Shown: positions 689-64,000 of the stretch, one piece after another
Position numbering within the stretch: the stretch's first letter is position 1
Layout: each line of letters opens with the position of its first letter
Assembly (NCBI GenBank): GCA_905178155.1
Contig: CAJINV010000012.1
Location: forward strand, 243,271 to 307,270
DNA length: 64,000 bases
Reading direction: 5' to 3'
Source of the DNA: Amoebophrya sp. A120
Lineage: Eukaryota; Protista; Dinoflagellata
The notes under the pieces: generated by a model
Database searches by the model: none
Told to the model about the DNA's origin: nothing
The model's input: the letters and a program-made list of their open reading frames with translations, nothing else
Program-made: the position numbers and the translations under genes

Positions 689-3600
689 CTAAGGGAAAAC
701 TTCGCAGCTTAAAATCCGCTGTTTTGCATTCCTAGCAAGACGGAGACAAACCCATCTCAACTTCTGTGCTGCAGGACATGCTGCATTTTCGAATCCGAAA
801 GTTACCACAACTGAAGCAGTTTTTCCTATACGATAGCCGATGTTCAGAGTCGAGTGCCACCAGTCGTCGGGTAGCCACAATGCTTCGTCTTCATTTTGCG
901 TGCACATTTGAATCGTCGCCAGTATCCTGGAGAAAAGCGTGCCTGTACCCGTTTCAGATGGAAGATCTGGGAAAATCTGCTACGGCTACGCAGGTTCGAA
1001 AATTGATTTGCAAACTGCGTAGGACAAGCCTGAACCCGATGCAGTGCGGTCTTCTCTTCGTGCTTTTTATCGATGAAGACTTCGCTACATTTTCTATATT
1101 CTGATTGATGGAGGTTGGCAAATTGCGAAAGAGCAACACGAGTTGTTAAAAAGGCCCTCCATGCCTACCAGCATGCAACCAGACTTGCACTTGCTTCATA
1201 TGACAATCCGCATGACAAATTTACTGTCGTGGGCACGTTTTATTTCCACAGGATAGCGGAGTCTTTATCTTCTTGGTCGTAGAACCAGTTGAAGCTCGAC
1301 TTTTCCGGGTCGAAGGGTGCATCTATCAATTGCAAATATGTCTGATTCTGGAAGATTCTGAGACTTGTCATGCACGTTTTGCATGAGTCATGATATCTGT
1401 GACGCGTGCCCTAGCATCACAGATTTTTTGAGGGCTTCTTGATGCATATTCCGCATGACAAATGCCTTCTCCGCGCAGGAAAAATTGCACTCCCTTTGCT
1501 GCTCATGCAATACAGATTTTTTTGGAATCCAACTGCAGCATCACAAGTTGCATCCTTCCAGACCTAGACATATTTGCAATGCATAGGATCGACGGGTTTG
1601 CTATTTGCAGCGGAGGAGGTGAAAAGGGGTTTCTTTTCCACGTGTCGATGTCCTTGGGGATTCAGATTGTCCTGCTTGGTAGAAGTGGTTTTTGCAGCTT
1701 TCATCGAGTTGATCTTGTGATCCTGAAGTTGTAGATCCTCTTGGTCTTGTTTCGTCGCGGAAGCGACGACTCCTCCAGCCAAGTCCCCACTGTTCATCGC
1801 AACGTCGAAAAGATCAGACTCGGTTGACCCGCCGTGTCGCCTAGCTCCTCCGCGTCGCCCCGTTCTCGCCAGTTCTTTCCGGTGCGCTGCTGCTGCTGCT
1901 GTTGACGGGGAAGTGCGGCTGGGAGCAGGAGAAACATGTTCCAGGAGGTCCACCTGTTCTGTACTGTCACCAGTCGACTCCTGCACTGATCTCGCGCCCA
2001 CGATATTTTCGATCCCGACTGAAAGCAAGTTTGTGCCATCCTGCGTGGATGAAGTTGTAGGCGTCTTTATCAACAGTTCGACATCCTCGATTTTTGAAGA
2101 CGTGCTGGCGGACACCTCCGTAGTACTATGGGCTGCAGCTGCAGCTCTTGCGTGGGCGGCCGGAATTCCTTTTCGCTTCACCTCCGAGCTGGTCGGCGCG
2201 ACAAACCAGCGCTTGCGCCGGTATGAAAGTGGACAAGAACTTCTCGGCACCCACTACTTCCTCTCCTTTGTACTACAGCATCTTCAGCGACAGAAAGAGG
2301 TCCGGAAAAATGCAGCAACTACCGGACAAATTGACGTCCGGACAATAGCGCGGTTTATTGGGATTCATCCGGTCCTGGACGAACTTGTATATGCAAATAC
2401 TGTCCAATAGCAAACTACCAAGACTTATGCCGATTTTGCATGACAAGTGAGGAGGGGACCATCAAGGGGGTGTTCGGAGTTGTCCACTATCTTAGTCCAT
2501 TTGTCACTTCGAGCAGGGCCCCTCCGTGCCGGTGCAACGGGATGCCGGACCCCGTCCGCCCGATCCCGAAAGCCAGGGCGCCATGCTCACTGTTGGGCAG
2601 CCACGACGGGCGCACGTTATGCAATGCAAAAGCATCGTAGAAGTTGTAGAACCCGTTACTAGTAATTCTAATTGCAAGCAGGCATTGGCATTCCAAACCT
2701 CTTTCTGAAGGTAGACGCGCATTACAAATTCGATTCTCCTGCTAGAGAAACAGAAACTTGTCGTGCGCTTTCTACTAGTACGATGCAACTTTTGCGTGGG
2801 ATACACGTACTCGTCCAGTAACTCGGGCCAAAAATTGTCGCCGCACAGGTACCAGTATGGATTGCAAATATGTCTGGGTCGTCCTCTGGATTTGTGATGC
2901 GGGAGCGGGACTTCAAGGACAGCAGGTGAATGATCTGTATATGCCCTAATGCGATTGGACAATTTTGTTGTCGTGCTGTATGGAGGTAGTTTGTAATGCT
3001 AAATGCGAATGAATCCGAAAGAAGCTCAAGCTGAGGAAAACTTCTAATTACTGTTATGCCGTACAAGCAGCCATTCTGCAAAAGTGGCAGCAACCGTTAC
3101 TTATACAAGCTCCGCCCCCAGACATATTTTAAATGCGTAACCAGGTGGTGCTAGCATTTTTCTGCAGCTCGTGATTATGCACTGCAAAAGTATCGCACTC
3201 GTATAAATGCATTACAAATCTTCTCAGCGTGAGAAATGAAATTTGTAATGCTGATTTGCCTTGAGAGAGAGATTTGTAATGCATGACTGCAATTACTACG
3301 AGTGCGATACTTTTGCACAGGATAGTGATCGAGCGATGGCAGCCTCTCGAAGGTTTTCAAATACTCCGCGAAGCTCATGTACTTCTTGTCGTGCGAGTAA
3401 GTAACCGCGTTGGACAGAATCACCTGCTTATCTCCGAACTCGCGCAGCATCCTGTGCTTCTGCGTCTTCGCCTTCAGGGCGTGGTTGAGTCGGTATATGG
3501 AAGTGCCAGAATCGAAATTGACAAAATCGAAATGATTTGTCATGCATAAAATGGATTCCAGTTCGAACCCAGTTTCTAAGCGGCGCATGACAAATTCTGG

Positions 3601-5967
3601 TGATACCTAAATCCAGTTTGTGATGCTGTTTAGGCAAAGAAGACTGATTCTCTCATGCTGCTTCAGCAGCTCGAGCTATAACCCCAAACAGGCTTACAAT
3701 CGGCCTCACTTGCCTGCTCTGAAACACACGTATTTCGCGTCATGCATTTTATGCATCACAAGTTTTTCGATTTTATCAATTTCGATCCTGACAGTTCCAT
3801 ACGGTAGTTCGTGAACATGTAGGGTTTATTGGACCAGCTTTATCCAAATGAATAAATTATGGAAGCGTCAGGTTTGAAATCGTCAAAGTTGAAATAATTT
3901 GTAATGCATAAAATGCATGACCCGAGGCACGTGTGTTGCAGAGCAGGCAAGTGAGGCCGATTGTAAGCCTGTTGGGGGCTACAGCTCGAGCTGCTAAAGT
4001 AGCATGAGAAAATCACTCTTCTTTGCCTAAACAGCATGACAAACTGGATTTACTAACCACCGAAATTTGTCATGCGCCACTTGGAAACTGGGTTCCAAAT
4101 GGCGTCCGTTTTATGCATGACAAATTATTTCAACTTTGTCGATTTCAACTCTGACACATCCATATAAATCGAGGAAACCGTAGACGTTCCGGCGGTAGAT
4201 AATCAATGCATGGAAACGAAACTGTTCTTGTACAAGAACTTCAGTAAATCATATTCCGCATGACAAGTCTCATGCTCCTTCAGGTTGGCAACAATAAATT
4301 GTCTTCATCCGACATCACTATAATCCATTTCATTTGTGCTACATGTACGGTCACGTCGGTTGTAAATTTGTCTTGCATAAGTCCAAGCGGGCGGGGTCAA
4401 AATCTGGACTCGAGACGTCGATCTTTTCCCAGTCGTATCCTGTGCAAAAGTATCGCACTCGTAGTAATTGCAATCATGCATTACAAATTTTTTCCTTCAG
4501 GTAAATCAGCATTACAAATTTCCTTTCTCATGCTGAGGAAATTTGTAATGCGTTTATACGAGTACGATACTTTTGCAGTTCATAAGTCGCACCGGTCCAC
4601 ATCGCGGAGGAGAAAATCGTATCCGACAACAGTGTATCCTGTGCGAAAGTAGTATCGCATTCGTATAAATGCAAGTCTTGCATTACAAATATTTTTCCTA
4701 CAGGTATATCAACATGACAAATCTTATTTTTGATGCTGCGCAAATTTGTAATGCATTTATACGAGTACGATACTTTTGCAGTTCATACGGTGGACCAGTT
4801 GGCTTTATTCTCGACGTGCGGCGATTCCGGCTTCAGCATTTCTGGCTCCGTTGAAAAAGACGTGCCGGACGTGGTCGTCCTCGTGGCGCCGGGAGATTTG
4901 GGTCGTGGACCTGCAGAAGTCAATGCCGCAGTTGTAGTACCGGTCCTGGTGGTATCCTCCTCGTTAGCTGCAGGACCACCACTACCTGCACGGTGAGCAA
5001 TAAATTTTTCCAAGACTTCTTCATTTTCAGACGAAAGTTCCACTTCCTCCGAAAATTTTTCCTGCTCAAAAAATCGGATCTGCATCAAGTCCGGGGTTTC
5101 CGCGATGGTGTCCTTCCGTGAATTAGAGTCTTTGTGCAGCATGGGATCGTGCAAGTAACAAATCTGTTGTGGGTTCTCGGAAGTAGTGGATGAAACACCT
5201 CCTTCGCCGGCGAGGAGACACGTCTCGGTTTCAGGACGACCTTCCAGCGCCTGTTGCGCCACCTCTTCACTACTTTCTTGTGGTGGAAGCGCAGACGTAG
5301 TGGTAGTGGGAAGCGTCCTCCGCAGTAGTTCCTCTTCACCTCCGTCCACGAAAGGCGGTGAAAATCCGTCGACGCTTGCTTGACGTGTTGACTCAGCAGG
5401 GTCCACTTCCTGATCAGGAGGTGCTGTGCTGGTACCCGCTGCCTGTCCGGAAAAGTGCTTGTCACCTTCACCACGACGGGGAGGTACTAGTTGCACATGT
5501 TGTTCAATAACGCCTGCATCCGCTCGGGCGAAAAGAAAAAGACGGCCCAGAGACTGTTGCTCTCCATTCTCGCCACCGAGGATGGAAGACCACGTGAGCA
5601 GGCTGAAAATCGTGGCGCAGAGGAGGAAAATGGACACAAAGTAGGCGACAGCAGCTTTATCTCGCGATGGCATAATTCGGCGACGAAATAATCTCGATTC
5701 TGACCGACACGTCGAAGTAGTGCCGCTAGTACAACAACCGTCGTCGGAGAACATTTTAGCGTAGTTCTTTGGCCGAAAACGAAAATGATCGGTGCGGTGT
5801 CGTTGTTTCGCTCGGTCGGGACGAAGTACTTCCCAAGCGACGAGACGAAAATGCCTGTCGTTTAAATTTGACGCAGGCGAGCCGGAAGAAAAAAGCGTCA
5901 TGATGTAGTGGACGGCGGTAGGTCCGACCGTCTTCGTGGTGATTGTGGTAAATGCAGACTCGGGCAC
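689..5967 (-). CDS. JMJD8-like JmjC-domain protein with N-terminal hydrophobic segment; 10 introner introns; start codon uncertain
   Basis: Manual splicing gives ...RCDWEKIDVSS...LDWSNKPYMFTNYRLN...MLREFGDKQVILSNAVTYSHDKKYMSFAEY...TTWYLCGDNFW...FGIGRTGSGIPLHRHGGALLEVTNGRKRWFV...PFDPEKSSFNWF...IQMCTQNEDEALWLPDDWWHSTLN, colinear with JMJD8 motifs (HxH, GRKRW, PDxWWHxTLN). Confidence 0.85.
923..1255. mobile_element. Introner element (non-canonical intron), degenerate direct repeat
   Basis: tatcctgg...ccacaggata; flanks gccag/gcgga; removing element + 5 nt gives DSATIQMCTQ. Confidence 0.75.
1324..1585. mobile_element. Introner, family B (~260 bp)
   Basis: tatcaattgcaaatatgtct...agacatatttgcaatgcata; DR gcatc/ggatc. 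Confidence 0.85.
2222..2494. mobile_element. Introner, degenerate direct repeat
   Basis: IR tatgaaagtggacaa/ttgtccactatctta; removal + 5 nt restores EVTNGRKRW. Confidence 0.8.
2618..2803. mobile_element. Introner, family A
   Basis: tatgcaatgcaaaag...cttttgcgtgggata; DR cacgt. Confidence 0.85.
2856..3139. mobile_element. Introner, family B-like termini
   Basis: tatggattgcaaatatgtctggg...cccagacatattttaaatgcgta; DR accag; restores TTWYLCGDN. Confidence 0.85.
3176..3324. mobile_element. Introner, family A (149 bp)
   Basis: tatgcactgcaaaagtatcg...cgatacttttgcacaggata; DR gtgat. Confidence 0.9.
3496..3801. mobile_element. Introner, family G (306 bp)
   Basis: tatggaa...ttccata; DR cggta; reverse-complement paralogue of 3858-4164. 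Confidence 0.9.
3841..4379. mobile_element. Old introner hosting a nested element
   Basis: tatccaaatgaataaat...atttgtcttgcata; removal + 5 nt gives RLDWSNKPY. Confidence 0.7.
3858..4164. mobile_element. Introner, family G, nested in 3841-4379
   Basis: tatggaag...catccata; perfect DR taaat. Confidence 0.9.
4436..4584. mobile_element. Introner, family A (149 bp), opposite orientation to 3176-3324
   Basis: tatcctgtgcaaaag...cttttgcagttcata; DR agtcg. Confidence 0.9.
4635..4787. mobile_element. Introner, family A
   Basis: tatcctgtgcgaaag...cttttgcagttcata; DR cagtg/cggtg. Confidence 0.85.
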
Positions 5968-9115: not shown

Positions 9116-12100
9116 CTAGAATGAATCAGTATAGTCTTTTTCTCGTCTCATACTTCCGTTGACGATGACATTCGACGCCCCGTCCGCCTGCTGCTGGTGA
9201 AAGTCGGCGATCAGGTTCATGTATGCACTGCAAAAGTATCGCGCTCGTAGTAAAAATCGCTGTCATGCATTACAAATCTAGTTGGTTAGGTAAATCCGCA
9301 TTACAAATTCAATTTGTAAAAATGCTGAGCCAATTTGTATTGCGATTTTTACTACGTACGATGCTTTTGCAGTGCATATCATGGCCTCCTGGGTTTTCAG
9401 CTGCAGGTCGGACACCATGTCGGTCAGCGACCCGTAGATCATCTCGTCCCGCTTGTTGCCCTTGTGTATCATCTGCTCCGCCTGCGCCTGCTTCTCGTGG
9501 CACAGCTCCACCTGCTGCAACAGCTGCTTGTAGCGCTGCTCCATCTGGTTCAACTGCTGCTGGAGCAGGGAGTTCTGCGACTTCAGGGTCTCCACGTCCC
9601 GGTTGCTCGCGGCTAACACTGCGGCCTGCGCCGCCGAATCTTGGTATCAAAATGAAAAAATGTTGTTTCTGGGTCCTCTGGAAAGGGTTTTTATCCTGCT
9701 CGGCTGGAGGAAAGAACTCCATAGGAACCGCTTTGTTTTCCTCACGCGCAGCCAAGCATGAGAAGTTTTGGTGACGCGGGGGCCCATCATTTGCTGCGTA
9801 TTGTCCATGACAAAGTTTTACGAATCGCGTTTTATTCCCATGAGATGACAAACAACGGGAAAGACTCCCCATCTAGCATGACACGGTTGAAAGTCAGGCC
9901 AAATAAGCAAGACAAATGCAAGAAATCTTGCATGATTCACCTTTCCAGACCCAAAGAACATCACATTTGCAATGGATATTTGGGAAGTAGAAGCGTTGTC
10001 CGCGGAAGTAGTGGTTGGCTTCGCGCGCGCGCCCCGTGGTCTGGTGGTTGTACCTCCGGCTCCGGCGGCAGGCTGTTTCCGTGAGGTAGAAGATGAGAAT
10101 TTCAAGTATGCACGACAAATGTTCCGTCGATCATGTTGACATCTTCTTCTCATGTACTACGGACTGTTTGATTTACAAGGTTACGAGCAAAGTATTTCAA
10201 AAAATGGAAATGTCTACATACATCATTCGCTCAAATTCTACTTCGACTCCGAAATGTAACAAAGACGCAACGAAAGAAAATCATCATCTAGCAAATCATC
10301 AACTCTGTCCATCAACTAGTTCTAGTACCTGCTGCACCACCTGCACGACGACGTTCTCGCTGCTGTTCCCTCCGCCAAACCACGAGCATCCGTTCAGGAA
10401 CCAAAAGTTGAACCAGAGAAAAAGCACTGCCAGGTAAAACACCGCCACCGGGGGGTGCTCGTAGAAAAACGCGGACAGCTTCACGGTCTGCAGACTGGTA
10501 TCAACTGCAAAAGTGTCTGGGTCTGGGAGGATGGGACTTGTGATGCGTCCTGTGGGTCACACAAAAATCTGTGTTGCGTGATCAGCAAAAGTTGTCCTTT
10601 TTTAACCAACACGAGCGGGAACTTCTCATGCCGGGTAGGCATGATAGAGACTTCGCAGAATTTGTCATGCTAGGTCCCGCATTCCAGACCTCATGGGGCA
10701 TGTAAAATATGCATGACAAGTCTGCATTCGTCCAGACCCAGACATTTTTGCATTTGATAACTGGCGTAGAATTCCAATTCCGTCGCGAACCACTTTGCGT
10801 AGACTGGCACTGCTATGCAATGTAAATTTCCCGCACATGTACAAAATGCATGACAAATTCCGCTAACTTGCAGTGTACAACTTGTCATGCTAGACTAGGA
10901 TTGAAGGCAAGTTTTGTCATGCAGAGACTGCATTTGTACGTGTACGGGAAATTTACTGTGGATAACTGCGTACTTGAGTTTATCCAAAAAAACCTCTGAA
11001 CTCAATGCGTCGACTTTCTTCACGGAGGGGGTCGCGGTCGCCGTCGCACCTCTGCCGGCCGCTGCTTTCGACGTATTCGGGCCCTGCTGTGATCTCGCGT
11101 GGTTGTGCGCCGGAGGGGCTACTCTAGTGGAAGCAGGCGCAGGATGCTGCTTGTTGTTTTGGTGAGGCTGCGGCTGTGAATGTGATTATTTGAGGTTGAT
11201 AAATCGGATGTACAAAGGAGAATGGCAAATGTTGATTTTTTTGTAAGTATGTTCTTCATATACATATTTGCTTTGTTCCAAAACTTGAAATCGCAAGAAT
11301 GCCGAAACAAGACGACCTGCTTCATCTTCGCCCCTGTAGAAATCTTGCCACCAAATAAACTACACGCACGTACAAGTAAAGATAAGTACCTCGGCCGCCG
11401 TGTTTTGTTGCTGCTGTCCCCCCGGCTGCCCGGCCGCTGGCTGCTGTTGCTGCGAAGTCGATCCGACCGTCGCCGCAGTGTCTCCTCCTGGGGCCGCCCC
11501 CGGCGGTACCTGACCACCTCCCGGAGGCGCCACGCCCTGTGCAGTCGCTTGCTGTTGCTGCTGCTGCCCTTGCTGCTGTTCCTGCCCTGCTGATAACGAC
11601 GCTGCAACGCCTGGTGGGCCTGTGAGATGTTGCTGGTGGTGCTGTTGTTGCGCCCCTCCAGCGGGCAGAGAGGCCGACGTGTCTGGTTGTTGCTGGTTGT
11701 AACCTGGAGAACCACTAGCAGCAGGAACTTGTTGGTGTTGATTCAGTTGTAAAGACGGGTCTTGCAATTGCTGCTGCTGCTGCTGCTGCGCATTCACATT
11801 ACCGACCGCATCATCTTGCGGAATCTGTCCTGGTAGTTGCTGTTGTCCGTTTTGTTGTACTACCCCTCCAGCACCTGCCGCTGCTCCTTGCTGCTGCTGC
11901 ACCGGGTCGACCCCCAGCTGCTGCACCCCCTGTGTAATTGTGGCAGTACCTGCTCCAGCAGCGGGATAATTGTTGTTCCCAGCCGCGCCGAGGTTCATTG
12001 GCGTTCCCAGGTTGCTGTTTTCCACCTGGTGAGCATGAGCAGTACCATCGCCCGGGACCACGCCAGCACTTCCCTCCGCTCCGCCGAGCATTTCCCCGGC

Positions 12101-28020: not shown

Positions 28021-28146
28021 TATGCATTGCAAAAGCATCGTACTAGTATAAAACGCATTGCAATTTGTCATGCCGTTTCAGGTAGAAAGTTGGATTTGTC
28101 ATGCATATCTGCAATCAGTACGAGTGCGATACTTTTGCACAGGATA
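28021..28146. mobile_element. Introner, family A (126 bp)
   Basis: DR gctgt. Confidence 0.9.
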
Positions 28147-28937: not shown

Positions 28938-29047
28938 TATCGAGGAAAAAACACCCATCCGCATCCATTTTTTGCATGGTAAACAGTGCAGTTTATGCAT
29001 GTTTTGCATCACAAAACGAATGTGGATGGGTGTTTTTTTCCTGGATA
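28938..29047. mobile_element. Introner, family E, opposite orientation to 24091-24202
   Basis: DR tgcct. Confidence 0.85.
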
Positions 29048-30558: not shown

Positions 30559-30712
30559 TATGCAACGTAAATTTGCCGCAGATGTACAAAATGCATGACA
30601 AATTTCGCTAACTTGAACTGTCCAACTTGTCATGCTAGACTAGGATTGAAGGCAAGTTTTATCATGCAGAGACTGCATTTGTACGTGTTGTACGGGAAAT
30701 TTACTGTGGATA
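30559..30712. mobile_element. Introner, family D
   Basis: DR ctggt. Confidence 0.9.
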
Positions 30713-49100: not shown

Positions 49101-51197
49101 TCAATTTTGTATTCCAAAGAAATGGTGGAGAAGGGATTCTCGTGCACTCTCATATGCGTCGAGCTTTAAGTCCACACCACTGAGCTGTGATGATACCTGG
49201 TCACGCCGTGCAGCCAGCAACCCGCGCTCCATCATCTGCTTCTGCAGGATCGCGACGTGCTGCACCGCGGCCGCCGCGTCGTGGACTGCCAGATCTGCAG
49301 GCTTGACCTTCAACCCACAGATCTTGCACGCGACCAACAAGCTCGCTATGGGGTACTCAAACCTTACACTGATCGCTGTTTCATCCTGTGGCTTTGTTTG
49401 TGTGTGATGCAAGAATTACATCATCAAAAGTGAAACTGCGCGTCGTGAGCTACAACTTATCTGCGAGGGATCTCATAGGCATACACCACTTGTCGTTGTC
49501 ATGCGAAGCCAGTAGTTTGGTCGTGTGAGAAGTGTGCTCCTGGAGGATACTTGTTTTTACCGGACAGAATTGATTTTGCATGGCGAATCAACATATAACA
49601 CTGATCCATGTAACGTTTGAGAGCACCATACTCGGGCAGATCAGCTTGTGTGCGTTTCGGTCTTTTCTGCGGATTGCCAATCCGCATTCACTATGCTGTG
49701 CAAAAGTATCGCACTCGTATTTTTGCAATCATGCATTACACTGTTCTTAAGCTAAACCTAAATCCGTAATACAAATTTCATTTCTCATGATGAGGAAATT
49801 TGTGATGCATTTAAATAATTTATACGAGTACGATACTTTTGCAATGCATATTCACAGGTGACCTTAGCAAACTGGCAGTTAGCCAGATGCTTTCCCATCA
49901 AATCCCCGTACTCGCCCTTCCATTGGCACCATTCTTCGTCCTCGGGACTGCTCGACGCTGAGGTACTAGAGGAGCTTCCGTTCGTCGAGACTACGGTGGA
50001 GGACAGGGAGGAAAAGGTATCCCCGTGCAAACACACCCGTTGTGATTGTTCGTAAAAAAGCAACTGCAATCTATCCCCCTAGTCGTTCAAAACTCAGCAT
50101 TGGCCTCATGTCCCTTAAGGAGTGAGGCCCGAGACTTGTACTGCAACGGGCGTTTCACTAATGAAAAAATCACATACGAGCAGGAGGTAATGTCATCACA
50201 AGCACAAAGTCGATCTTATGCATTGCAAATATAATGTCTGGGTCTGGAAGGACGCAAGGTTTGTCATGCTTGTCTTGAGGTATGAGTGAAGAGTCTGTCA
50301 TGCGCGTCCAAGACGTCAAGATCCGTGTGCTTCTGCGTGTCATGCAAAAACGCAGCTTGTCATGCGGAAAGCGAAACACTGAGCCGTACTTGGCTGTGCA
50401 TTTCAGAGCATTCCATTTGCTATTGGTACGTATTGATTCACAACTCAGCATGACAAGTTTCCAGACCAAGACATATTTGCAGTGGATAGGCCTGTCCAAG
50501 AGCAGTCGCAGCTAGTGGTGCCGCAAGAGATTTTTCTTCGATGCCAAAGTTGAGCCGGACAATTTTCATGTGATGCAGCACAGCCATGTAGTGAGGCGCT
50601 TTGTCTTCAATCACAAGAAGGTATGTTTGCACAGGATAGGACCCGCCGCTCGACGCCGTTTGCCGGTGGCGCATACTCCACGGGCAATAAACCTGATTTG
50701 AATATTATTTTTTCATATTCGATCGCTTCCGTTCCGTATAATTTTAATTACAACATTTAACTCGTAGGCAATAAACATCACGCTGCAGTCATCCAGATGT
50801 CGCAAGCAGAACGACGCAGAGAACTTTTGAAATTTCCGAGATTATCACTCAATGCGGAGAAGGAGCGAACTCTAGCACAAAAACGACTTATGCAAGTCAA
50901 TACGTTGATTTTGTTGATCATGCGTAGGGCGTGGATGTTGGATTTTTTGAGAGGACTCCCTCTGGTGGCGGTTGCTTCCGTGCCGCGACCGAAGGGAACG
51001 CGACAGGTTGGGCAGGATCTGACCGAAGGGTGTTCAATGCAGCTTGTGCAGAAAATCGAACTGCAGCAGGCCGTCTGCAGCGGGTCCTCCACCAGGTTCA
51101 AACAGACGCTGCACTCGTAGTGCTTGGCCAGGTCTCGTGCCTCCTCGCAGACGATATCGTCGACGCGAAATTTATCAAAGCTTCCGGGCGAGGACAT
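49101..51197 (-). CDS. RING finger + TRAF-type zinc-finger protein (putative E3 ligase); C-terminus uncertain
   Basis: YECSVCLNLVEDPLQTACCSSIFCTSCI...CPTCR; KIN|VYCPW via a GT-AG intron; CQWKGEYGDLMGKHLANCQFAKVTCE|CGLAIRRKDRNAHKLICP; VACKICG...HVAIL. Confidence 0.8.
49692..49850. mobile_element. Introner, family A
   Basis: DR ttcac; restores VTCECG. Confidence 0.9.
50018..50638. mobile_element. Old introner hosting a nested element
   Basis: tatccccgtgcaaac...gtttgcacaggata; removal + 5 nt keeps frame (GGSSSLSS). Confidence 0.7.
50217..50488. mobile_element. Introner, family B, nested in 50018-50638
   Basis: tatgcattgcaaata...catatttgcagtggata; flanks gatct/ggcct. Confidence 0.8.
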
Positions 51198-54666: not shown

Positions 54667-57600
54667 TCATCTCGCTTTCTTTCCCTCCTTCTTGTTACCG
54701 CCCGATTTGCTTTCCTTGCTATTCTGCGAGTTCTTGTTCTCCTTGTTCTGTTGGTCTTGGTCGTCCGTTCTACTTTTACCACTTTGACTCCCGCTGCCAC
54801 CGCCCCCTGCGCCCTCATTGTCTGCTGCAGGAGGGGCCTCGTTTTCGCGAATAATATGGAGCTCTCAAGCGTTACATTCTCAACTGTTACATGGTTTGTC
54901 ATGCAAAACTACCATCGTGATCCACAGGATGAAGCTGCTTCGATTGACAAATTTGCGAAGGGATACACAGCACCTAAATGATCTGCGCGGGACTTGTAAT
55001 GCATTTTTTGCAATCTTCGCCCTTTCGCTTTTCCATTTTTGCATTACAGACTCATGTAACAGTTGAGAATGTAACGTTTGAGAACGCCATAAATAAACCG
55101 CTCCGAGTGTACGTCCGGGGGAAAGACCACAAGTCGCCAGTTTTTCCAGAAGCCCTTGTTGTATGTATTCTTCATCATCTTCCGCAGGGTATCCGACGCA
55201 AATCCAAAAATGTTCTTGGGGTCTGGAACAAGAACGCAGAAGTTTGTCATGCAGCACAAGAACGCAGAAGTGCTCCTTCAACATGCCCAACGCGCATGAA
55301 ATAAACCCATTCTCGGATCCAGCATCACGAAAACCAAAGATATTTTTCCGCTCATGCATCACAGATTTTACTGCCAGCCGCATTTAGCATGACAAGTTGA
55401 GTGCTCCTTCTCGCAAACCCGAGTGGACATATTTGCAACGCATAAAGGTCTTCCGGGGGGTCCGGCTTCTCGAGGATCGGCTCGTTCTCAGGAAGTGCTG
55501 AATCCGTTATGAGATTCTCAACTGCTGCATTCTCAACTGTTACAATTATTTTACTTTGTGATGCAAGAATGGCAAATATTAATATGACGGCAGCGAGCTG
55601 GCAACCCTCACAGAACGAATTCGCCACAAATTTTCACGCTGTTCACCCCTTCTGAAATTTGTCATGCGCAGCAGCTTTATCACGTGGCAGCTTGTTGTAA
55701 TTTCGCACGGCAAATCATGAAACTGTTGAGAGTCTAACGTTTGAGAGTCCCATACCCGTGAGAATAAGGTTTTGCTGCTCCTCATCTGCTATGCATTGCA
55801 AAAGTTTTGCATTTCTTCAGTGGAAATTGCAATCAAACTTATTCACGAAAAAAGTTACAGAGAGAATTTGTAATGCTACACCGACCAAACAATAAACACA
55901 AGCCAAAGGGCCACCGGGTCGTGGAGTCAGGCGGAGAATCAATTTGTAATGCTGATTTCCCTTTCAAACCATATTTCTCATGCTGTATTGCAATTTCACT
56001 ACGAGAAGTACGAAAATCATTTTTGCACAGGATATAGGCTGCAAGGGCTTCGGAGTACTCCTTTTGATCATCCTTGTACTTTTCTCCGAGAGCCCACCTG
56101 AGGGATCCCCACTTCTGTAGCTCATTGATGTATGCTTTGCAAAAGTATCACAGTCGTACTGATTGCAATCGCGCATGACACATTTAGTTTGTTAACCAAA
56201 CCAGCATTACAAATTTCATTTCTCCTTCTTCTGAACAAAATTGTATTTTTACGATTTATGCGATTTGCACAAGTACGATACTTTTGCAATCCATAGACTG
56301 GTGGTCGCGGCGACAACCAAATACGCGTGCCACAGGAAGAATCCCACGAGAATGATGAACATCATGCCACACAGGAGCACGAGAAAGAGCAAATACCCCT
56401 TCGTCGCCATGAGGTACTGCCCGATAACCCAAAAACTGGCCGGATAGCGTTCCTTGGTCACAGGGTCAATGAATACCTGAGTTTTGATGTTGAATTGGAT
56501 TTAGTGTTCCGAAATCTTCTGCTTTGATCTCTTCGCAAAAACATGAGGGAAAGGAAATTGCAGATGAAAGGACCTTGACAACTTCTCGATGAAGTATAGC
56601 AAACGAAATAACTAGACGTAGACTACTAGTACCGCTTCCCAGAGCTTTCTCTTCTCAATGATATGATACAATATCGGCCCTCCGAGCGGCGTATGAACGA
56701 AAATCGCTGCGTCAAAACAACTATTTGCCAGGCGAAGTAGCGAATAAATCACAAACAGAATCACTATCACGACGAGGTCGAGGACTAGCATCATTCCTCA
56801 TATTCCCTAGAAGTACTGGCTAACTAATTTGAATCTCTTATAAGTAGAAGTACAACAAGAGCAAGATCTCCTCTACAGAGCGCTTCACAGTTGTTCCTGC
56901 TCCGCATTTTATTTGCAAGCTCCTGGTTGATGTTGACTCAGCTGTTTTCACTTTCGTTACGCCAGGCAGTAGAGGCAGATGAGACCGTTGGAAAGCAAAA
57001 ACATCATGAAGTAGTAGTGGTTTTGGAGGCCGACGCAGTTGTTGATCCAGATGTGGCATCCTCTGCAAAAGCATCGCACTCGCACTGATTGCAAATATGC
57101 ATGACAAATCATCTTCCTAAAGGTAAAACAGCATTAGCAAATTCCATTTCTTTTTGCCAAAATTTTTTGCAATGCAATTTATACGTAGTGCCATGCTTTT
57201 GCAATTCATATGCAGTGGTGGTCAAATTTGGCGACACAGTGGTTGTGCGTATGGGAGGAAGACGACCCGGTAGCACTTGGAACGACGGCGGGCTACGGGC
57301 AAATAAGTAAATCTTCTATGTTGACATTTACCGTTACACGTATAGTAAGGTAGGGCTCAAGTCTAGCAAGAAATTGCCCAGAACCAGAAGTGCTGCTTCG
57401 TCATTTTTCACTTCTCATAACACAAGCTGCAGTGTTTACTCCTTCCCGGCTTCGGTATTTTGCAAGTCGTACACTCCTGAGTCGGATCGAATATCTGCCC
57501 GTCGGCGGGAAAATAGTTCACCAAGGCCTTCTATACAGTGCAAAAGCATCGCGCTCGTACTAATTGCTGTTATGCATGACAAATCTCTCTCCTAAGGTAA

Positions 57601-60012
57601 AACAGCATTACAAACTTCATTTGTAATGCTGAGGAGCTAATTTGTGATGCAATTTATACTACGTACGATACCTTTGCACTTCATACCTTCACATTTCGTG
57701 ACGTCACCACACCGGGATCTTTGAAGCTGGCCATAACCGTATGCAACTCGAAAAGTAGTTTCTCCTTGTCCTAAGTCTACCAAACCATGTCATGCTCACG
57801 TGTAACGTACTCTGTCATGCATAACTTACATGCAGGCATAGGCATATCCGACTATTCGCTTTAGCGTTTGCTATGCAAGAACTACACGTCTAGCATGGAA
57901 TTTCGGACAAGAGAGAAACTCTGATCCTCTGTTCCGAGCATACCCGAAATAGTAGATGCAGATCAAGAAAGCGGCAAATCCACTGTATATCAAAATGAAA
58001 TAGTAAAATTACAAGCGATTAAATTTGCAACCTTACCTACTTCAGCAGTTTGCTGCTGCGCGTGTAATTCGACAGAATTCAGATTCACATTTCTTGGCTT
58101 CGTGCGTGTAGAATGCACAAGGTCATTTTCTACTTTTTGTTTCACGCAACACAATATGATCTCATTACATTTTCTGTAGGCGCTTTGGCTTTGCATCACA
58201 ATGTGCTGGTTGTCTACTGTATTACATACTAGGCTGTAAATGAACTTTTTTCATTTTGATATCGTACTTGTGGTGTTCGCCGATGTACCTAAAATTTTTA
58301 CTTCGCGTTGCGCATTGATGTATTTATCTGCGCATAGCTCATCGAAACAAACATCGCCCTGGTACTTACTGAAGTTGAAAGCACGCCCCTCCGGCAACGA
58401 AAATTTCATTTCGATCCAAGCGCACTGCTCTTACAGCGACTGCGACAAAAAGGAAAATATTAGTACTTGTTTGGCCGTATGCTGCAGAAAACGAGCAATT
58501 GATATTGCTGAGTCCTTTATTGTTCGGTAACGTTACTCGCGAGGATATTCTAAGACCAAGCATACCGTCCGTGAATAAAGTTTGCCCCGATGGGTTTCTG
58601 TCTTGGTTTCTGTTATTTTGTAGTAATTTTGGGAGCGCGCTACCTTTATGCTCCCGGGGGATGCGTCTTCTCTACAAACTGGTGGGGAACACGGCACGAG
58701 TGCGTGTTTTGCCCGTGCGGGTCGTGCTATTGACATCAATTGCTGATTCTTCTTGGATACGGATTTCCGGGTGTGCGTGCAACGTGACAAGTGTCCAGGG
58801 TAAAAGGGATCGGTCTACGGCGGGTTAGGTTGCGGGTGCTATGTCACAGCAGCACAAAGTATAAAACACATTAAGCACAATGCCGTCCGTCATCACCGTG
58901 AGCATGACAAAAATTGTCCCTGAGGAAGCAAACAAATTGCGCATAAGAAATTGGTGATTCTCGCGCGCCAATTAAGTACAATCTATCGCCGCGACGATCG
59001 GACCGCTTCCATCGATAGAAATGAAGTAGCCGCAGCAAGTATCAGACGGGAAATGTCCTGCTTCGACTTCTCCTATGAACTTGATCGTGTTCTGTGCATT
59101 CCGAAAAGCATGTTGAAGTTGTCATGCTAAATTTCATGAATCTTTGCTGTACTGTGTACTTATAAGTACGAAAGGAGAAGGCGAAGGCGTTGCCGATTGT
59201 AACATATTATCCCAAGGTAAAAGATCTGCACCAGCGGGTTGTTTTGCCATACCTGAAGTTTATTTTGCCAAACAGTTCGGCGTGGACAAGTCAATTTCGC
59301 TGCAAAAGACTTCACTGTCACGACATTTATCCTTCATATGTTATTTGTTTTTCAAAAATGACCCGCACATAATTCTAAACCCGCGTACCACGTAGCGTTA
59401 TTCTGCGGAAGCTTTCTGAACCACGCTCGCTGATACTCGTCCCAGAAGGAGCCTTTGCGCAGGCCTAGAAGAGACGCGCAAAGATCTCACCTATGCTTTT
59501 TACCACAACAGTAGATCATATGCATCTTTGAGCAATTCATTCGTCTTCAAAGAATGGCGCTGCTAGTGGTGCAACGCGTTCTTCTGGGACAATGCGCCCT
59601 TGATTCAGAAAGTGTTCTTTCCCAGCATAGATTCCAGCAGCCGCGCACTGCATTCTCGCCCCGCTGTCCGCAGAGTGTTGTTGCGACCGCTATTACCGCC
59701 TTGGGGACGGCCTTATGCACTGCAAAAGCATCCTCGCACTGGTGGCAGCATCTACAACCTTCTGTTTTTCTACAATACAATAATGCAACCTGTCATGCTA
59801 TACTAACTCAGGGACGACCACGTACTATAGATTTGTCGAGCATGATCCCGGTTAGCATTAGTACGAGTACGACACTTTTACTCCAGTTGATACGTCTGCA
59901 CGAAAAACCGCCAGCTCTTGTCAAAAAAGGAGTTTCCCTCCGGCTTGCCCTTCAGGAAGACAGCAGCGCCGAAGGTGATAATCAGTACGTAGGCGATGAG
60001 GAGGTAGATCAT
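54667..60012 (-). CDS. DHHC palmitoyltransferase, ZDHHC4/SWF1-like; some internal exons unresolved
   Basis: Spliced: MIYLLIAYVLIITFG...; FKDPGVVT...[44 protein letters not shown]; TTSxE; NTYNKGFWKNWRLVVFP (PaCCT-like); ends KKAR-stop. Confidence 0.9.
54855..55091. mobile_element. Introner, family F
   Basis: tatggagctctcaagcgttac...gtaacgtttgagaacgccata; DR aataa. Confidence 0.9.
55190..55444. mobile_element. Introner, diverged family B
   Basis: tatccgacgcaaat...atttgcaacgcata; flanks caggg/aaggt. Confidence 0.8.
55508..55754. mobile_element. Introner, family F
   Basis: DR tccgt/cccgt. Confidence 0.85.
55790..56034. mobile_element. Introner, family A-like
   Basis: tatgcattgcaaaag...tttttgcacaggata; flanks tctgc/taggc. 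Confidence 0.8.
56131..56295. mobile_element. Introner, family A
   Basis: tatgctttgcaaaagtatc...gatacttttgcaatccata; flanks tgatg/gactg. Confidence 0.85.
57057..57210. mobile_element. Introner, family A, directly after the catalytic DHHC Cys codon
   Basis: catcctctgcaaaagcat...atgcttttgcaattcata; flanks tgtgg/tgcag. Confidence 0.85.
57250..57419. mobile_element. Highly decayed introner
   Basis: tatgggaggaag...cttctcata; removal + 5 nt gives KHCSLCNHC. Confidence 0.75.
57532..57685. mobile_element. Introner, family A
   Basis: DR ccttc. Confidence 0.9.
59714..59892. mobile_element. Introner, family A-like
   Basis: tatgcactgcaaaag...cttttactccagttgata; flanks ggcct/cgtct. Confidence 0.75.
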
Positions 60013-62949
60013 CTTCTTGCTTCGAACGATTTTTCGGAGACAATGACGTAGCAGGAGGTGATATTTGTCTTCTTCTCGTTATTTCCGGCGGTTCGGTGCA
60101 GTTCCGCGTTTTAGCTCGTGGATCGCTGGTCCGTCGACCACGTTGTGGTCCTTCTTGGGTCTTCACTTTAAGCGCTCGTGACCAGCAGGACGACTTGCGG
60201 CACAACAACTACTCACTGGTTGTTCGCGTGCAATGTTGTTGACAGGAGCTCGTCGTGTGGGGGTGTTCTTTGCAACCAGAAGCTGGGCTATTGTAGGAGC
60301 TGCTCCTGTTGACCACGTAGAATTTTTGCACGCAGATTTTTTCGACGCAGGTCCTGGCGGGACGACCTCGTCCAGTAGCCTCTGGTGCACACTCAACGGC
60401 AGTTAAAATCAAAATCTAATCATGCTGCAGGTGCGGCTCGTGTCCTTTTTCACTTGCTGCGCCGCGCCAAATTAATTGATAAATGCTGCGTATTTGCTGC
60501 GTTCGCCCATGCGGCGATTACGATTTCGCTTTCTACTGCTTTCCCGCCGTCGTGGATGTAGTAGCAGTTGGTTTGGTGGCTACAACTACGTTATGTGTGG
60601 TGGAATCCGCGGGAGCCGTCGCAACTGGAACCCTAGAGGCCCTCTGTCATCACGTGTAGTTGTCCTACCTGCCGCGCCGTCCCGGTATCCAAGTGTAGTC
60701 TCGAAAGTGTGGTTTCCGCTTCAACTACATTCAGGTATCGTGCCGCCCCGTCGCTGCGTCTCCTGTCGAGACGATTACTAAAACTGCTTCTTCACGATGG
60801 GTGGCGAGCCAACACGAGGCACCAGCGAGGTTTTCTGGTGGTTCGCGGCAAAAATATTCACAGAGAAGCCTCGGCGCTATAATCCTTGTCGTCCTTTACA
60901 GCGATGAAGCATCAAAGGGAATCAATTTGTATGCAATGCTGGCGAAGGCCACATTTTTCTGTACTTCAACAATTTTGGGAAAGAGAATTCTGAGTATGAC
61001 TAGTGCCACAATTTCTCATAGAGAGGAAGGTAAATTGTAGTAAACACCGAGCACAACTGGGAAAATGACGTGAAAGTGAAGACTAAAACCTAATACTAAG
61101 TGCGAGGATACGTGAAAGTCAAAACCTTTATCTTTGAGAATATGAATGTTTCAACAACATCAAGATTGCAGGGTGCATTTGGTAGTCCGCAAAAGTGATA
61201 TATACTAGTTGCATATTTATTCGTCACGACAGATGTATCCCTGCTCCTTCATGCTACTGTGTCCATGCTGACGAGCACGAAAAATGTGCAGCCAACGACG
61301 TCATCTCACTGTATACGTTAAAATTGACCGCACTACGATCGAAAATCCACTTCAAGATCACGTGCCACGGATCACAAGAAAAAACAAGTTTAGCACTCTT
61401 GCAGGCCACCCTTTGCTGCAACAGCGACGAAAAACCACAAGATGAACGGTTGCAAAATCCAAGGAAACTGAAAACAACGAAAAGCAAAATCAAAAGATCC
61501 TCGAGTGCTGGAACAAAGTGGTCAGATCTATCACTTCGAGAGCAATAACACGAGTGTTGCGTAGAACAAGATGGGCAGTAACGTTATGATGCTGGGCATT
61601 TAAGGCTGTGCTCGGTATCCGAGGTTCTTGTTGCATCGTCGAGTTCGATGACTACATAAAGCTGCTCAAACATCCAAGGTACATTAGACACGGTCGTGAC
61701 ACCAGTTAGACCTCGTTCTTCCAACACTTTGGTTCATTTATTCGAAGCGAAGCAGGCTATCATGGCAAATCAATTTCTTATGGTACATTCTTGGATACTA
61801 CTAGACGCACGAGGAACTACGGGCGGTGCTCGACTTCTACATGATTGGCTCAATTTGTCTTTCAGCGTAATAAAACGCGGCCAATGTTGACTAATTTCCG
61901 TGCCTATGCACCTCTTGCGAGCTGCTTCTAGAAAGTGCGGCTGCGAAGAACGCCGCGAGCGCGACCCGTAGGTAGCTGAAAAGATAAATAATTCGTGAAA
62001 GTTGAAAGGCATAATCTTCTATTAAGGATTTTTGCTACTCCGCCTCGTGCTTTGCGTATTTTTTGCCTAGTTTGTCCATGTGTTTTTGCTCTTGTTTTTT
62101 CTTTTGCGTATCTATGAATTCAAAAAAAACTGTTTTGCTTAAATGTTTTTCTCAAGTACAAGTAGCAGTGATCGCTCGCTCCGTCGACCGACGATCGTGT
62201 TGATTTTTCTACTCAGTCCGGGATGCCCATGGCCGGCGCTGCATAGTCGTAGTCCGGGGCGGGGTGGTACGCGAAAGTGTGGAAATAAAGCTGCATTTGT
62301 ACATCCAACAATGTTTGAGCTTGAATTTGGTGTTATCAAAACGGCCTGATTCCGTCGTTGAATCAATTTATCGCCCAAGTCACGCATTACAAACTCCCGA
62401 TATTAGTTTTCCAACACGCATGACAAATGAGTTCATTTCCTTATCCGCCGAAAGTGGAGTAGTTTCCGCTCTGCAGGAACGCGCCGTAAAGTATTGCCAG
62501 CATCGTTAGCAAAGGTATGAGCTTGTAAAAATCACTGTCATGCCTACTTTGTCGGAATCTTCGCATTCGCTTGTGCGCGTTCAGAAAATAAGTGCGGTGT
62601 GAGAGCATTCATGCACTTTGTGTCTGCGAAAAAAATTCAGAAGATGTCTTTCTTGATCGTGAAGGCTACGTTTCTGCATGACAAACTCGTAAGTTTATGT
62701 TTTGCCACAAAGGAGGACACCGGGTAACAGTGACAGAAAGAACGCCTAGGTTTCTGGTGCATAATCACGACTATCACCGCTGCTGCGTCCCACATGAGGA
62801 TGCTCCACCTGTTTTTTTTGCAGTCTGACTTTGCTGGTTCCAAAACTACAACTAGCGTAGAATTTGTCATGCATATAATTCTCCAGGGGTAGAGGATCGG
62901 GTAGATTTGTCATGCAGATCCAGATGATATGCAAAAAAGGAAAAACCAA

Positions 62950-63440
62950 AAGTACATGACTCCATCCTGGACAAAGCCCTGCTCTGCCGCGCTGCCCGAA
63001 TACGCGGAAACAAAATTCTTCTTCTTCTGGATCTGCTTGGTGGTTTTCTCCAGCGCAGCCAGCTTTGACATGAGGTCGGCCTTTTCTCGCTCGGATTTGT
63101 GGACCTCCTTTTTCAGGCGTTCGACCTGTGAAAGTTTTTTTGGACGTCGTGCATCAGCATCACAAGTTTTGACTTTTAGACTCGGCCCTGCTCATGCAGC
63201 CGATGTTGCATCATAATAGATTTTTGTGTATTGGTGTTTCGCATAGATCATGAACACAGACCTCCAGAGAAACAAAATCATACCACTATTATCGCCTCCT
63301 TTGTTGTTTCGGATTCGTGTTTCTGCCTCAGGCGACTCAGTTCCTCTTCAAACGCCAAGGAAAATTCTCGTTCCAGGTTTTGTATGCGTTCGCGCTCGTT
63401 GACCAACTCCACTCGCATCTTTTCAAACAGAATAGAATGG
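62950..63440 (-). CDS. Internal exons of a coiled-coil protein; gene limits unresolved
   Basis: Minus-strand frames FEKMRVELVNERERIQNLEREFSLAFEEELSRLRQKHE and RRLKKEVHKSEREKADLMSKLAALEKTTKQIQ, flanked by GCATGACAAA-containing intron-like DNA. Confidence 0.45.
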
Positions 63441-64000
63441 AAAAAACGTCGAATCCAACCACGCTTGTATTCAGTCGCAGTTTGTCATGCAGATCATGCA
63501 AGAAATAAAGTCGTCTGCAAAAAAATGAACATAGAAAGGAAGACCATGCGGCTGCAGCTCTCCGTGGCACGAATTGCTTACACAACAGGAAGAACATGAC
63601 AAGATTAAAACAGTGAGACATCCACCTGCTGAGTCATGGCATATGACAAGCATAAGTTGATTCGAAATGTCCCTTGTTTCATACTCTGTGCCGCTAGTCG
63701 TTGTGTTTCGAGGGACCGCAACCGTTCGGACTCCTTGAGCTCCGTTCGAAGCTTGGTGCACTGGTTTTCCACCTAGAAGTAAAAAAAGAGACGATTGATT
63801 TTTTGCGGACCAAAAGAGTTCAGGTGCCCTCTAAAAGTGCCGAAATAAAGCAGAATCTTCAGAAACACTATATCGTTCGTCCACATCCCAGACTCCATCT
63901 GCGATGCATACGCTCGGCGTCCTCGCTACATGGCATGCGAGACCCTAACTGTGATGATAAAAAGGAAAGATCCACTTATCCTATACCACTATCCTGGCCT

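Follow-up and report, generated by a model that had tools for sequence, protein, structure and literature searches.

What keeps one short sequence intact inside introner families whose ends and bodies differ? The question is raised by a stretch of DNA from the dinoflagellate Amoebophrya sp. A120 (contig CAJINV010000012.1, positions 243,271 to 307,270), 64,000 nucleotides long and hereafter called the window. A120 contains tens of thousands of non-canonical introns, and the text of Farhat 2021, in which no transposase was reported for A120 and general mobilisation by transposases was disputed, left open both the mobilising enzyme and the splicing route (PMC7789003). An original prediction, made from the letters of the window alone, held that nearly all introners share a box, GCAT(G/T/C)ACAAA, which serves as a common cis element for a mobilising transposase or for a splicing or folding factor.

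Element families and their ends

The elements fall into 13 families of 109-321 bp with terminal inverted repeats (TIRs) of ~30 bp; short, non-coding and dispersed, they have the features of MITEs. The set of 292 copies combines the window with metagenome assembly JACKZZ01, which holds the same families, and 257 of the copies were drawn from metagenome loci picked for an exact pair of boxes at 31-32 bp. The scan for such pairs returned at least 130 metagenome loci (among the matches listed, 79 of 130 from JACKZZ01); L076 repeats L077 and was excluded, and overlaps were trimmed from L010 and L073. The 51 other metagenome loci and two viral loci gave three weak chance pairings of TAT and target-site duplication (TSD) and no convincing element; the viral loci, near-identical and low in GC, carry tandem-like repeats and were rejected. 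Family letters were assigned independently here and need not equal the A-G of the original prediction.

Across the 292 copies the ends begin with T (0.98), A (0.99) and T (1.0), followed by C or G equally at position 4 and by A at positions 11-14 (0.81-0.92), a run that is weaker in families G and H. Beyond TAT(G/C) the TIRs vary by family, with family-specific hexamer repeats at positions 15-30. An exact 5-bp TSD flanks 214 of the 292 copies and TSD lengths of 6-9 occur in none; no insertion-target preference was seen among the copies examined.

Judged from their sequences, the elements appear to match the published A120 introners, for which the text of PMC7789003 gives TAT-starting inverted repeats with seven looser bases and an A run, direct repeats at the boundaries and many families; the direct repeats there are 3-5 nt, whereas here a 5-bp TSD combines with a 1+4 splice register. 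In the accessible text of Gozashti et al. 2025, A120 family 38 has "5-bp TSD, TA/TA termini", as here, and most A120 families among those seen are "TIR DNA, unknown superfamily" (PMC12130899). Family 38 is tied there to Copia/Gypsy-like ORFs; no such ORFs were found here. The internal box seems new to the literature searched: no description of an internal introner motif or box was found in published work outside subscription papers, figures and bioRxiv supplements, the text of PMC7789003 outside its supplement figures gives terminal repeats only, and the box string is absent from 12 of the 14 supplementary files of PMC12130899, whose long cells are incomplete.

Abundance and whereabouts of the box

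The enrichment of the box is real. On both strands of the window GCAT(G/T/C)ACAAA has 89 exact matches, against a mean of 0.54 and a maximum of 3 in dinucleotide shuffles, and 84 of the 89 lie inside TAT...ATA elements or spliced introns: 35 full-length family copies, together 7.3 kb, account for 61, further TAT...ATA elements for 14, and introns that RNA-like contigs span for 9. No exact box occurs across 11.4 kb of contig-supported exon or 31.8 kb of long-ORF cores; the remaining five stand outside assigned elements and introns (394, 444, 1210, 29424 and 29909). The predicted motif is, however, too narrow. Over the 292 copies the wider form is GCA(T/A)(G/T/C)A(C/G)AR: position 4 is A at 231 of 1447 sites (16%), position 7 is G at 174 and position 9 is G at 321, while position 5 is nearly free among G, T and C (A in 26).

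Elements and introns along the window

Strands are given in brackets where assigned. The left end holds a family B element with TAT...ATA ends, boxes and a 5-bp TSD with one mismatch (1324..1585, +), a single TAT...ATA element with exact TSD CACGT and a box at 2719 (2618..2803), and a B-like element with an exact TSD, one mutated end and boxes at 2891 and 2990 (2856..3139). They are followed by a family A element with the box pair 3242/3273, 31 bp apart, and an opposed box at 3209 (3176..3324, -); by family G elements at 3496..3801 (-) and 3858..4164 (+), the latter with box 4034 paired with an upstream box 32 bp away; by family A elements at 4436..4584 (+; pair 4478/4509) and 9222..9378 (+; pair 9267/9298), with an A-like element outside the full-length set at 4635..4787 (+); and by a family B element (10499..10759, -) and a family C element (10814..10964, -). 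Family A (15577..15725, +), family D with one end TTT (15832..16117, +), family C (16169..16319, +) and a single TAT...ATA element with an exact TSD (16502..16705) come next. The consensus boxes of the D element are all antisense to the minus-strand gene. Removal of the first two of these elements is deduced from the length arithmetic of a contig, in which 810 nt are missing (154+291+156+209).

Removal without GT-AG is seen in contigs of X3 and X4, which skip an element plus 5 nt. Such contigs skip 17256-17524 at a family B element (17261..17524, +), and an A-like element (18189..18356, -) lies in the skipped stretch 18184-18356. X3 and X4, one sample, are presumed to be RNA, and their contigs also come without the GT-AG introns, which supports this. 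Raw RNA from another sample (X9) gave no exon cover, with reads only over one family B element.

The SelO gene contains a C-like element with one decayed TSD copy (20218..20414), family A elements at 20538..20671 (-) and 21995..22152 (+; pair 22042/22073), family E (20868..21194, -; pair 21003/21035), family I (21419..21634, +), a B-ended element with boxes at 21805, 21825, 21858 and 21889 and the pair 21858/21889 (21685..21938, +), family D (22200..22484, -) and family B at 22656..22909 (-), 22964..23228 (+) and 23529..23796 (+). Further on lie family F at 24091..24202 (+; pair 24125/24157, 32 bp) and 28938..29047 (-), family C at 24272..24422 (-) and 30559..30712 (-), family D at 24498..24776 (-), family A at 28021..28146 (-; pair 28064/28095), a TIR-bounded element with box 29227 (29101..29299) and a decayed family I element (30316..30552, +). 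A family A element at 30769..39807 (-), its TSD with one mismatch, is split by an insert of ~8.9 kb.

To the right, contigs bridge family H elements at 49347..49630 (-) and 54855..55091 (+) and a family A element at 49692..49850 (+). Also present are a B-like element (50217..50488), an intron that is a decayed B element with box 55243 (55186..55445, -), family H (55508..55754, -), an A-ended element with boxes 55867 and 55943 (55790..56035), and family A at 56131..56295 (+), 57057..57210 (+) and 57532..57685 (+; pair 57574/57605). Non-canonical introns on the minus strand include two without family match at 48214..48522 (box 48262) and 58788..59018 (antisense box 58902), a third at 59036..59202 with the variant box GCATGACAAC at 59118, one with decayed ends and antisense boxes 62384/62418, 34 bp apart (62274..62444), and those at 62511..62763 (box 62676) and 63427..63684 (box 63481). 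Of the 14 non-canonical introns that X3 contigs bridge, four lack a box even when one mismatch is allowed, and yet are removed: 47854..48166, 48584..48834 (TAT ends intact), 58474..58760 and 59395..59630, all on the minus strand. Two GT-AG introns hold boxes, one of them a variant: 62809..62955 (-; boxes 62863 and 62906) and 63126..63283 (-; GCATCACAAG).

Every place that the original prediction had quoted holds a box, exact or, at 59118 for 59120, variant, and the isolated copies that it saw in decayed intron-like DNA are exact at 58902, 62418, 62863 and 63481. Its statement that boxes stand in both orientations is true of the family C element at 10814..10964 (10848+, 10881-, 10913-), but not of 21805-21889 (all +), of 24125/24157 (both -), or of families D and F, in which all boxes face one way.

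Conservation and spacing

Within families, the core of the box is kept four to five times better than the spacers. At positions 1, 2, 3, 6 and 8, 343 of 7181 sites (4.8%) in the 292 copies depart from the family consensus, compared with 22.3% for spacers and 28% for box position 5; window-only copies give 43 of 787 (5.5%) for the core and 21.8% for spacers. Pairwise, the cores of strong boxes stay at a difference of 2-5% as spacer difference climbs from 11% to 32%. The idea of a common cis element stands across the 13 families. Per-copy decay of the box runs from 2.1% where the TSD is intact to 3.1% where it is mismatched, a range close to the rate after insertion that the mismatch between two TSD copies implies (5.9% with six copies of at least three TSD mismatches excluded, 7.3% with them included); the comparison is loose. 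Should drift be confined to the intronic TSD copy, the neutral rate would be closer to 4.5% and the box would still be held after insertion.

Direct pairs dominate the layout of boxes. At 30-33 bp, about three helical turns, 20 direct pairs occur in 12 of the 13 family consensuses (null mean 2.7, maximum 10, 5000 permutations). Because metagenome loci entered the copy set for having an exact pair at 31-32 bp, the set favours that spacing; in the window alone, free of pair-selected loci, 14 of 38 direct 9-mer pairs below 100 bp still have it, and they come from 7 of 9 families. Gaps are rarer in pair spacers (1.2%) than elsewhere (2.4%): the length is kept although the spacer sequences are dissimilar. 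Inverted spacings also recur (convergent 41-42, divergent 8-9 and 39-41), and in six families a box facing outward lies 41-63 nt from each end.

A probable docking site on DNA

Conservation of the box is equal on both strands, with core substitutions at 154 of 3072 sense and 143 of 3069 antisense sites (p=0.55) in the 249 of 292 copies that can be oriented; the strand tests omit the 43 copies without assignable orientation. Among the options of the original prediction this favours the transposition role. The box is probably a docking site on double-stranded DNA for the machinery that mobilises miniature transposons with TAT...ATA ends and 5-bp TSDs, which are then spliced as introns. Box pairs would be bound by the site-specific domain of a transposase of the cut-and-paste type, either one enzyme or several relatives of the same specificity; a putative oligomer, seated along a single helix face, would bring the TAT ends into the catalytic centre, much as hAT enzymes use their subterminal repeats. 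Selection on the box would act when a copy propagates, and decay would follow insertion. Splicing uses a separate signal, the N-TAT donor and the ATA+4 acceptor. We infer the binder from the DNA side, since no transposase was found in the window or the fetched loci. Eight exact boxes that remain in 15 introns without family match, and boxes in two GT-AG introns, count against this reading, as does the position taken by Farhat 2021.

If so, two codes are separated, the box on DNA for movement and the N-TAT donor with the ATA+4 acceptor for splicing, and the shared box points to a way for families to diverge with little constraint and yet stay mobile. Two boxes 31-33 bp apart would offer a defined bait for the binding protein and for candidate transposases.

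A possible shared factor and inserts at the box

The family-specific TIR positions 15-30 are as compatible with more than one enzyme, or with a shared factor apart from the enzymes, as with one enzyme. Less likely than the transposase reading is that the box is read by one shared, non-catalytic DNA factor (host, domesticated or helper-encoded) and the TIRs by family-specific enzymes. Such a factor might stay bound after insertion, aid co-transcriptional marking of introns and attract other mobile elements. It would suit a box that is constant while TIRs differ by family beyond TAT(G/C), the strand indifference expected of any DNA-bound protein, and the persistence of boxes in introns with decayed ends and in the two GT-AG introns. 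It would also suit four secondary inserts, of two kinds, that sit exactly at a box. Two of them are related, occupy different boxes and have duplicated 21 and 13 bp starting at box position 2; the other two, which share one end, come after box position 10, and the elements hit belong to families H and A. The ~8.9 kb insert in 30769..39807, a 177-180 bp satellite, lies directly after box 39756. Against the factor stand the box-free introns that are still removed, a box decay compatible with a neutral rate and rising with TSD mismatch, and three other long elements and one nested case with no clear junction at a box; moreover, the inserts could be targeted by direct recognition of the sequence.

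The further proposal that the box is a genome-wide address for one adaptor apart from the catalytic transposases, persisting on introns as a landing pad for unrelated elements, is doubtful. Were it true, families with different TIRs could plug into different enzymes, the adaptor would stay on tens of thousands of introns and possibly aid a U1-less spliceosome during transcription, and unrelated mobile elements would thereby insert within DNA that is spliced out.

Strand, RNA and splicing

That the box is a strand-specific RNA signal, either a branch site or a site for a splicing protein, is very unlikely. Branch sites have the consensus yUnAy, whose free position resembles the free fifth base of the box; box positions 4-7 read UnAC, and the outward-facing boxes of six families would place a sense copy near the 3' end whichever way an element inserts. 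A branch site or RNA splicing enhancer should depend on the sense strand and lie near the 3' end. Core conservation near the 3' end is equal on the two strands (27 of 605 sense, 42 of 904 antisense), as it is overall; a sense box at a distance of 20-70 nt from the 3' end is present in only 99 of 249 oriented copies, 35 of the 249 have no sense-strand box at all, and position 4 is A at 16% of sites. Families D (10:9) and F (4:4) insert in both orientations without bias, and family J is skewed 15:5 (p=0.04, uncorrected, one of 13 families). The same strand test, as a positive control, does register selection for splicing, with the donor TAT changed at 3 of 747 sites and the acceptor TAT at 15 of 747 (p=0.007). 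Equal conservation of the strands, insertion in either orientation, the lack of covariation between opposed boxes and the removal of box-free introns show that the box is not an RNA signal, and the splicing or folding factor of the original prediction loses its footing.

What is spliced has another signature. Cleavage lies 1 nt upstream of the donor TAT and 4 nt downstream of the acceptor ATA; canonical introns here likewise start with G-TAY. The pattern N-TAT...ATA-NNNN fits 19 of 23 contig joints with at most two mismatches; three are GT-AG and one is left over (the listed joints are 15 of 31 and the listed aligned pieces 8 of 93).

Could the box instead be a functionless relic of the common ancestry of the families? 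Over their full length, families A and C align at 66% (z=3.5), 12 of 23 length-matched family pairs score z 2.7-4.5 above spacer-shuffled controls, and 12 of 78 pairs retain short local matches after masking. On these alignments the description of the families as unrelated is overstated, and shared descent contributes: alignment from end to end, which the original prediction named as refuting it, is seen for the pair A/C and weakly for several others. A mere relic is nonetheless highly improbable, given the better-kept core, a position 5 limited to G, T and C, and pairs whose length is preserved although the spacer sequence drifts. Since the box was kept while the spacers diverged, selection is still needed beyond descent, which can explain the origin of the box but not its upkeep.

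Internal stems of RNA or single-stranded DNA between opposed boxes can practically be dismissed: predicted folds of 89 copies pair 76% of box bases, 40% with another box, but position 5 agrees within copies no more often than with copies swapped (501 of 1377 vs 514, P=0.9), changes that preserve G-U show no excess (262 vs 284, p=0.37), D and F lack opposed boxes and direct pairs dominate. The TIR arms of one copy match each other better than swapped arms, and for an RNA stem in the TIRs a test of wobble asymmetry gave no significant signal (p=0.14 and 0.70).

Transposase search and known systems

The suggested search for long elements with the same ends that encode a transposase gave eight long candidates, none with a transposase, which hold captured or nested DNA or are mispaired ends. 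Pfam found no transposase family in 80 ORFs (18 from the window and 62 from metagenome loci, a subset of those of at least 250 aa); the matches were to host genes, apart from a weak RNase H hit outside any element (L079, E=0.001). No autonomous partner was found in the 389 kb searched.

Ginger elements end in TGT and have an integrase-like transposase, and Lemi1/Emigrant elements duplicate TA at the target. Membership in Ginger was rejected, as the ends here are TAT in 98-100% of copies. Family 38, too, is described without Ginger termini and TSDs in the accessible text of PMC12130899. IS3EU ends begin TAY, as here, but the 6-bp TSD and TAYGG ends given in the text of PMC12730594 do not fit, with a 6-bp TSD in 0 of 292 copies and C or G equally at position 4. 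The same text gives the hAT5 group 5-bp TSDs, like those here. A hAT transposase combines a BED finger, a DDE domain and a dimerisation domain; neither the window nor the fetched loci yielded any transposase sequence.

Subterminal repeats inside the TIRs resemble hAT as an arrangement only. As far as the accessible text of PMC10368747 goes, Hermes also has short repeats inside its ends, in both orientations and unequally laid out at the two ends, which are bound by a site-specific domain. The Hermes repeats are 4 bp long and belong to one element, whereas the box is 8-10 bp, is common to families with different TIRs, stands in fixed 30-33 bp pairs and fills the whole element; Hermes also prefers nTnnnnAn targets, a preference not seen here (PMC10368747). 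The Lemi1 transposase binds subterminal motifs of the Emigrant MITE cooperatively, besides the TIR, in a system that the text of PMC1636448 presents, unlike the present one, as pogo-like, with one MITE family and no intron formation.

The box may also serve as a family-independent tag for locating old introners.

Distribution of the box and its carrier elements

The window contains 89 matches to the box GCAT(G/T/C)ACAAA; shuffled sequence gives 0.54. Of these exact boxes, 61 lie within 35 full-length introner elements, 14 in other TAT...ATA elements and nine in contig-bridged introns, while five were placed in no element, bridged intron or exon. No exact box is present in the 11.4 kb of contig-supported exon in the window or in 31.8 kb of long-ORF cores of related loci. 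The box is restricted to mobile or intronic DNA, which bears out the enrichment over exons expected in the original prediction. Every site cited there carries the box or a near variant, and the isolated copies thought to mark intron-like DNA (58902, 59118, 62418, 62863 and 63481) all fall inside bridged introns, mostly without a match to the 13 element families recognized here (lettered independently of any earlier naming).

The elements start with TAT, finish with ATA, carry ~30-bp inverted repeats and duplicate 5 bp of target, with no target preference seen. They interrupt minus-strand genes, including the SelO gene. Their ends, inverted repeats and target site duplication (TSD) agree with the Amoebophrya sp. 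A120 introner elements in the description drawn from PMC7789003, and an entry in supplement 8 of PMC12130899 gives one A120 introner family a 5-bp TSD and TA termini. Contigs of sequencing runs X3 and X4 (one sample, presumed to be RNA) omit the element plus 5 nt, and GT-AG introns are likewise missing from them. The register 1 nt + TAT...ATA + 4 nt fits 19 of 23 intron junctions examined; three are GT-AG introns starting G-TAY, and one was assigned to neither class. In these three (62809-62955, 63126-63283 and 58289-58466) the G-TAY start equals the +2 to +4 letters given to the donor by element ends, and the two that hold boxes may be elements turned canonical. Micro-exons of 7, 17 and 5 nt (58467-58473, 59019-59035 and 59390-59394) lie between introns of an X3 contig.

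Families and their relationships

Searching metagenomes for box pairs spaced 31-32 bp gave at least 130 loci. The same families were found in at least 79 loci of one assembly, at ~67-93% identity among the matches listed; the remaining listed loci, outside that assembly, held no convincing element. Together with the window, the full-length set comprises 292 copies of 109-321 bp in 13 families. Because the loci behind 257 of the 292 had been chosen for carrying a box pair, key tests were rerun on window copies.

The families had been regarded as unrelated and not alignable end to end. This holds only in part. A and C, identical in layout, can be aligned over their full length at 66%. Once boxes and ends are masked, the matches left are short and local, in 12 of 78 family pairs. 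In 12 of 23 length-matched family pairs, z reaches 2.7-4.5 over spacer-shuffled controls. The families may plausibly have radiated long ago from common ancestors; shared descent accounts for the origin of the box, not for its upkeep. The terminal inverted repeat (TIR) arms of one copy agree better than arms exchanged between copies.

Conservation and geometry of the box

The full motif is GCA(T/A)(G/T/C)A(C/G)AR. Each family consensus has 2-7 boxes, and one or more loose matches are present in 290 of the 292 copies. Core positions (1, 2, 3, 6 and 8) deviate from family consensus at 4.8% (5.5% in window copies alone) versus 22% in spacers; position 5 deviates at 28%, hardly ever to A. The box, better conserved than its surroundings, is under selection. 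Twenty direct pairs 30-33 bp apart are spread over 12 of the 13 families, against a null mean of 2.7; among window copies by themselves, 31-32 bp is the spacing of 14 of the 38 direct pairs closer than 100 bp. Spacers within the 30-33 bp pairs are dissimilar between families: geometry is conserved, spacer sequence is not. Recurrent spacings are also seen for convergent pairs (41-42 bp) and for divergent ones (8-9 and 39-41 bp), with P ~0.001 each in bins picked after seeing the data, and outward-facing boxes start mostly 40-42 or 48-51 bp from the element end. A selected box, directly paired in 12 of 13 families, supports the common cis element that had been proposed.

As to when selection acts, strong-box cores differ between nearest copies by 2-5% at any spacer distance (11-32%). 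Boxes have decayed by 2.1% per copy where the TSD is intact and by 3.1% where it is mismatched. Between the two TSD copies the difference is 5.9%, equivalent to ~3% each if both drift or ~4.5% if mainly the intronic copy drifts. Given these rates, box decay fits neutrality after insertion, as proposed for a role in transposition; mild retention, as for a splicing role, is also compatible. The eight exact boxes in 15 introns that match no family, and those in two GT-AG introns, may represent rarer families or retained sites.

A probable signal in DNA rather than RNA

A codon model assigned a host strand to 249 of the 292 copies; in the window, 32 of the 35 scored individually as minus strand, in agreement with contigs. 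Elements insert in both orientations, and this includes the two families with boxes in a single direction, D (10:9) and F (4:4); J shows a skew of 15:5 (uncorrected p=0.04). A splicing or folding factor acting on RNA, one of the roles first suggested, is disfavoured. Core substitution is 5.0% in sense and 4.7% in antisense boxes (p=0.55, 249 copies), and the same data register splicing selection at the ends, the donor TAT being changed in 3/747 and the acceptor in 15/747 (p=0.007). An RNA enhancer is unlikely given this strand indifference and the four of 14 non-canonical bridged introns that lack a box even at one mismatch. A branch site is unlikely too, as conservation is equal on both strands, insertion goes both ways, and of the 249 oriented copies 35 lack a sense box altogether, while just 99 carry a sense box at 20-70 nt from the 3' end. 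Internal stems of opposed copies were also envisaged, and predicted folds often pair them; neither covariation at position 5 nor a G-U bias was seen between opposed boxes, making this role unlikely.

A proposed role in protein binding

The motif is strand-indifferent, geometrically spaced and selected, and sits in TIR elements with a 5-bp TSD. Box pairs would lie on one helical face and be bound by an oligomeric site-specific protein serving mobilisation, for which a transposase would be the simplest candidate. In the accounts taken from PMC10368747 and PMC1636448, respectively, the Hermes transposase binds subterminal repeats and Lemi1 binds Emigrant; the box pairs, known here from sequence, can be likened to both. 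The 5-bp TSD is shared with hAT5 as presented in PMC12730594. No transposase gene was found among the long elements and ORFs inspected in the window and fetched loci. In most families TIR positions 15-30 carry family-specific hexamer repeats at a 6-nt lag, which are distinct in A, B, C, F, I, K, E and L and weak in G, H and D; with such repeats a single enzyme would fit, as would several related enzymes or an adaptor shared by the families. Subterminal binding repeats of MITEs are a known kind, of which the box would be a form shared across introner TIR families. The box was not found in the published papers searched, within a reach that stopped short of figures, two supplementary files, long table cells and subscription papers.

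Inserts at the box and other observations

Eight insert-bearing elements were aligned. Metagenome loci L005 (6584-7838) and L052 (3862-4492) hold inserts that are related to each other (70% identity) and sit at different boxes of family B, with duplications of 21 and 13 bp that begin at box position 2. Another two inserts, alike at their end, come immediately after box position 10, one in the L059 H element and one in the window A element at 30769-39807; the other four elements showed no clear junction with a box. The window insert splits the A element and consists of ~8.9 kb of repeats, inverted as well as tandem, with a 177-180 bp satellite; its end, with a GC hairpin, matches that of the L059 insert, and no clear target duplication is seen. 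It may be Helitron-like. These few inserts suggest that the box site is recognized by other mobile elements, or through a protein visible to them.

A 38-bp stretch at 26726-26763 recurs unchanged in an insert carried by an L061 H element (6184-6998); since X3/X4 contigs continue beyond 26763 with L061 sequence, another repeat is cut off there. An ORF at L079 4247-5599 matches RNase H weakly, has a cysteine-rich tail and is possibly the end of a non-LTR retroelement. A GC-rich stretch at 6780-8060, flanked by a ~40 bp direct repeat (near 6835 and 8015), is possibly a small mobile element. The SelO gene (19400-25230) contains at least 13 elements, and its neighbour (14900-19170), aspartyl protease-like by eye with no Pfam match on the pieces sent, contains six. 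At 3494-4166, a 274-bp inverted repeat is made up of two oppositely oriented copies of family G, separated by 56 bp. In X9 (raw RNA from another sample, with no exon cover), ~190 reads at 17440-17517 derive from a B element of another locus, with the outward box intact.
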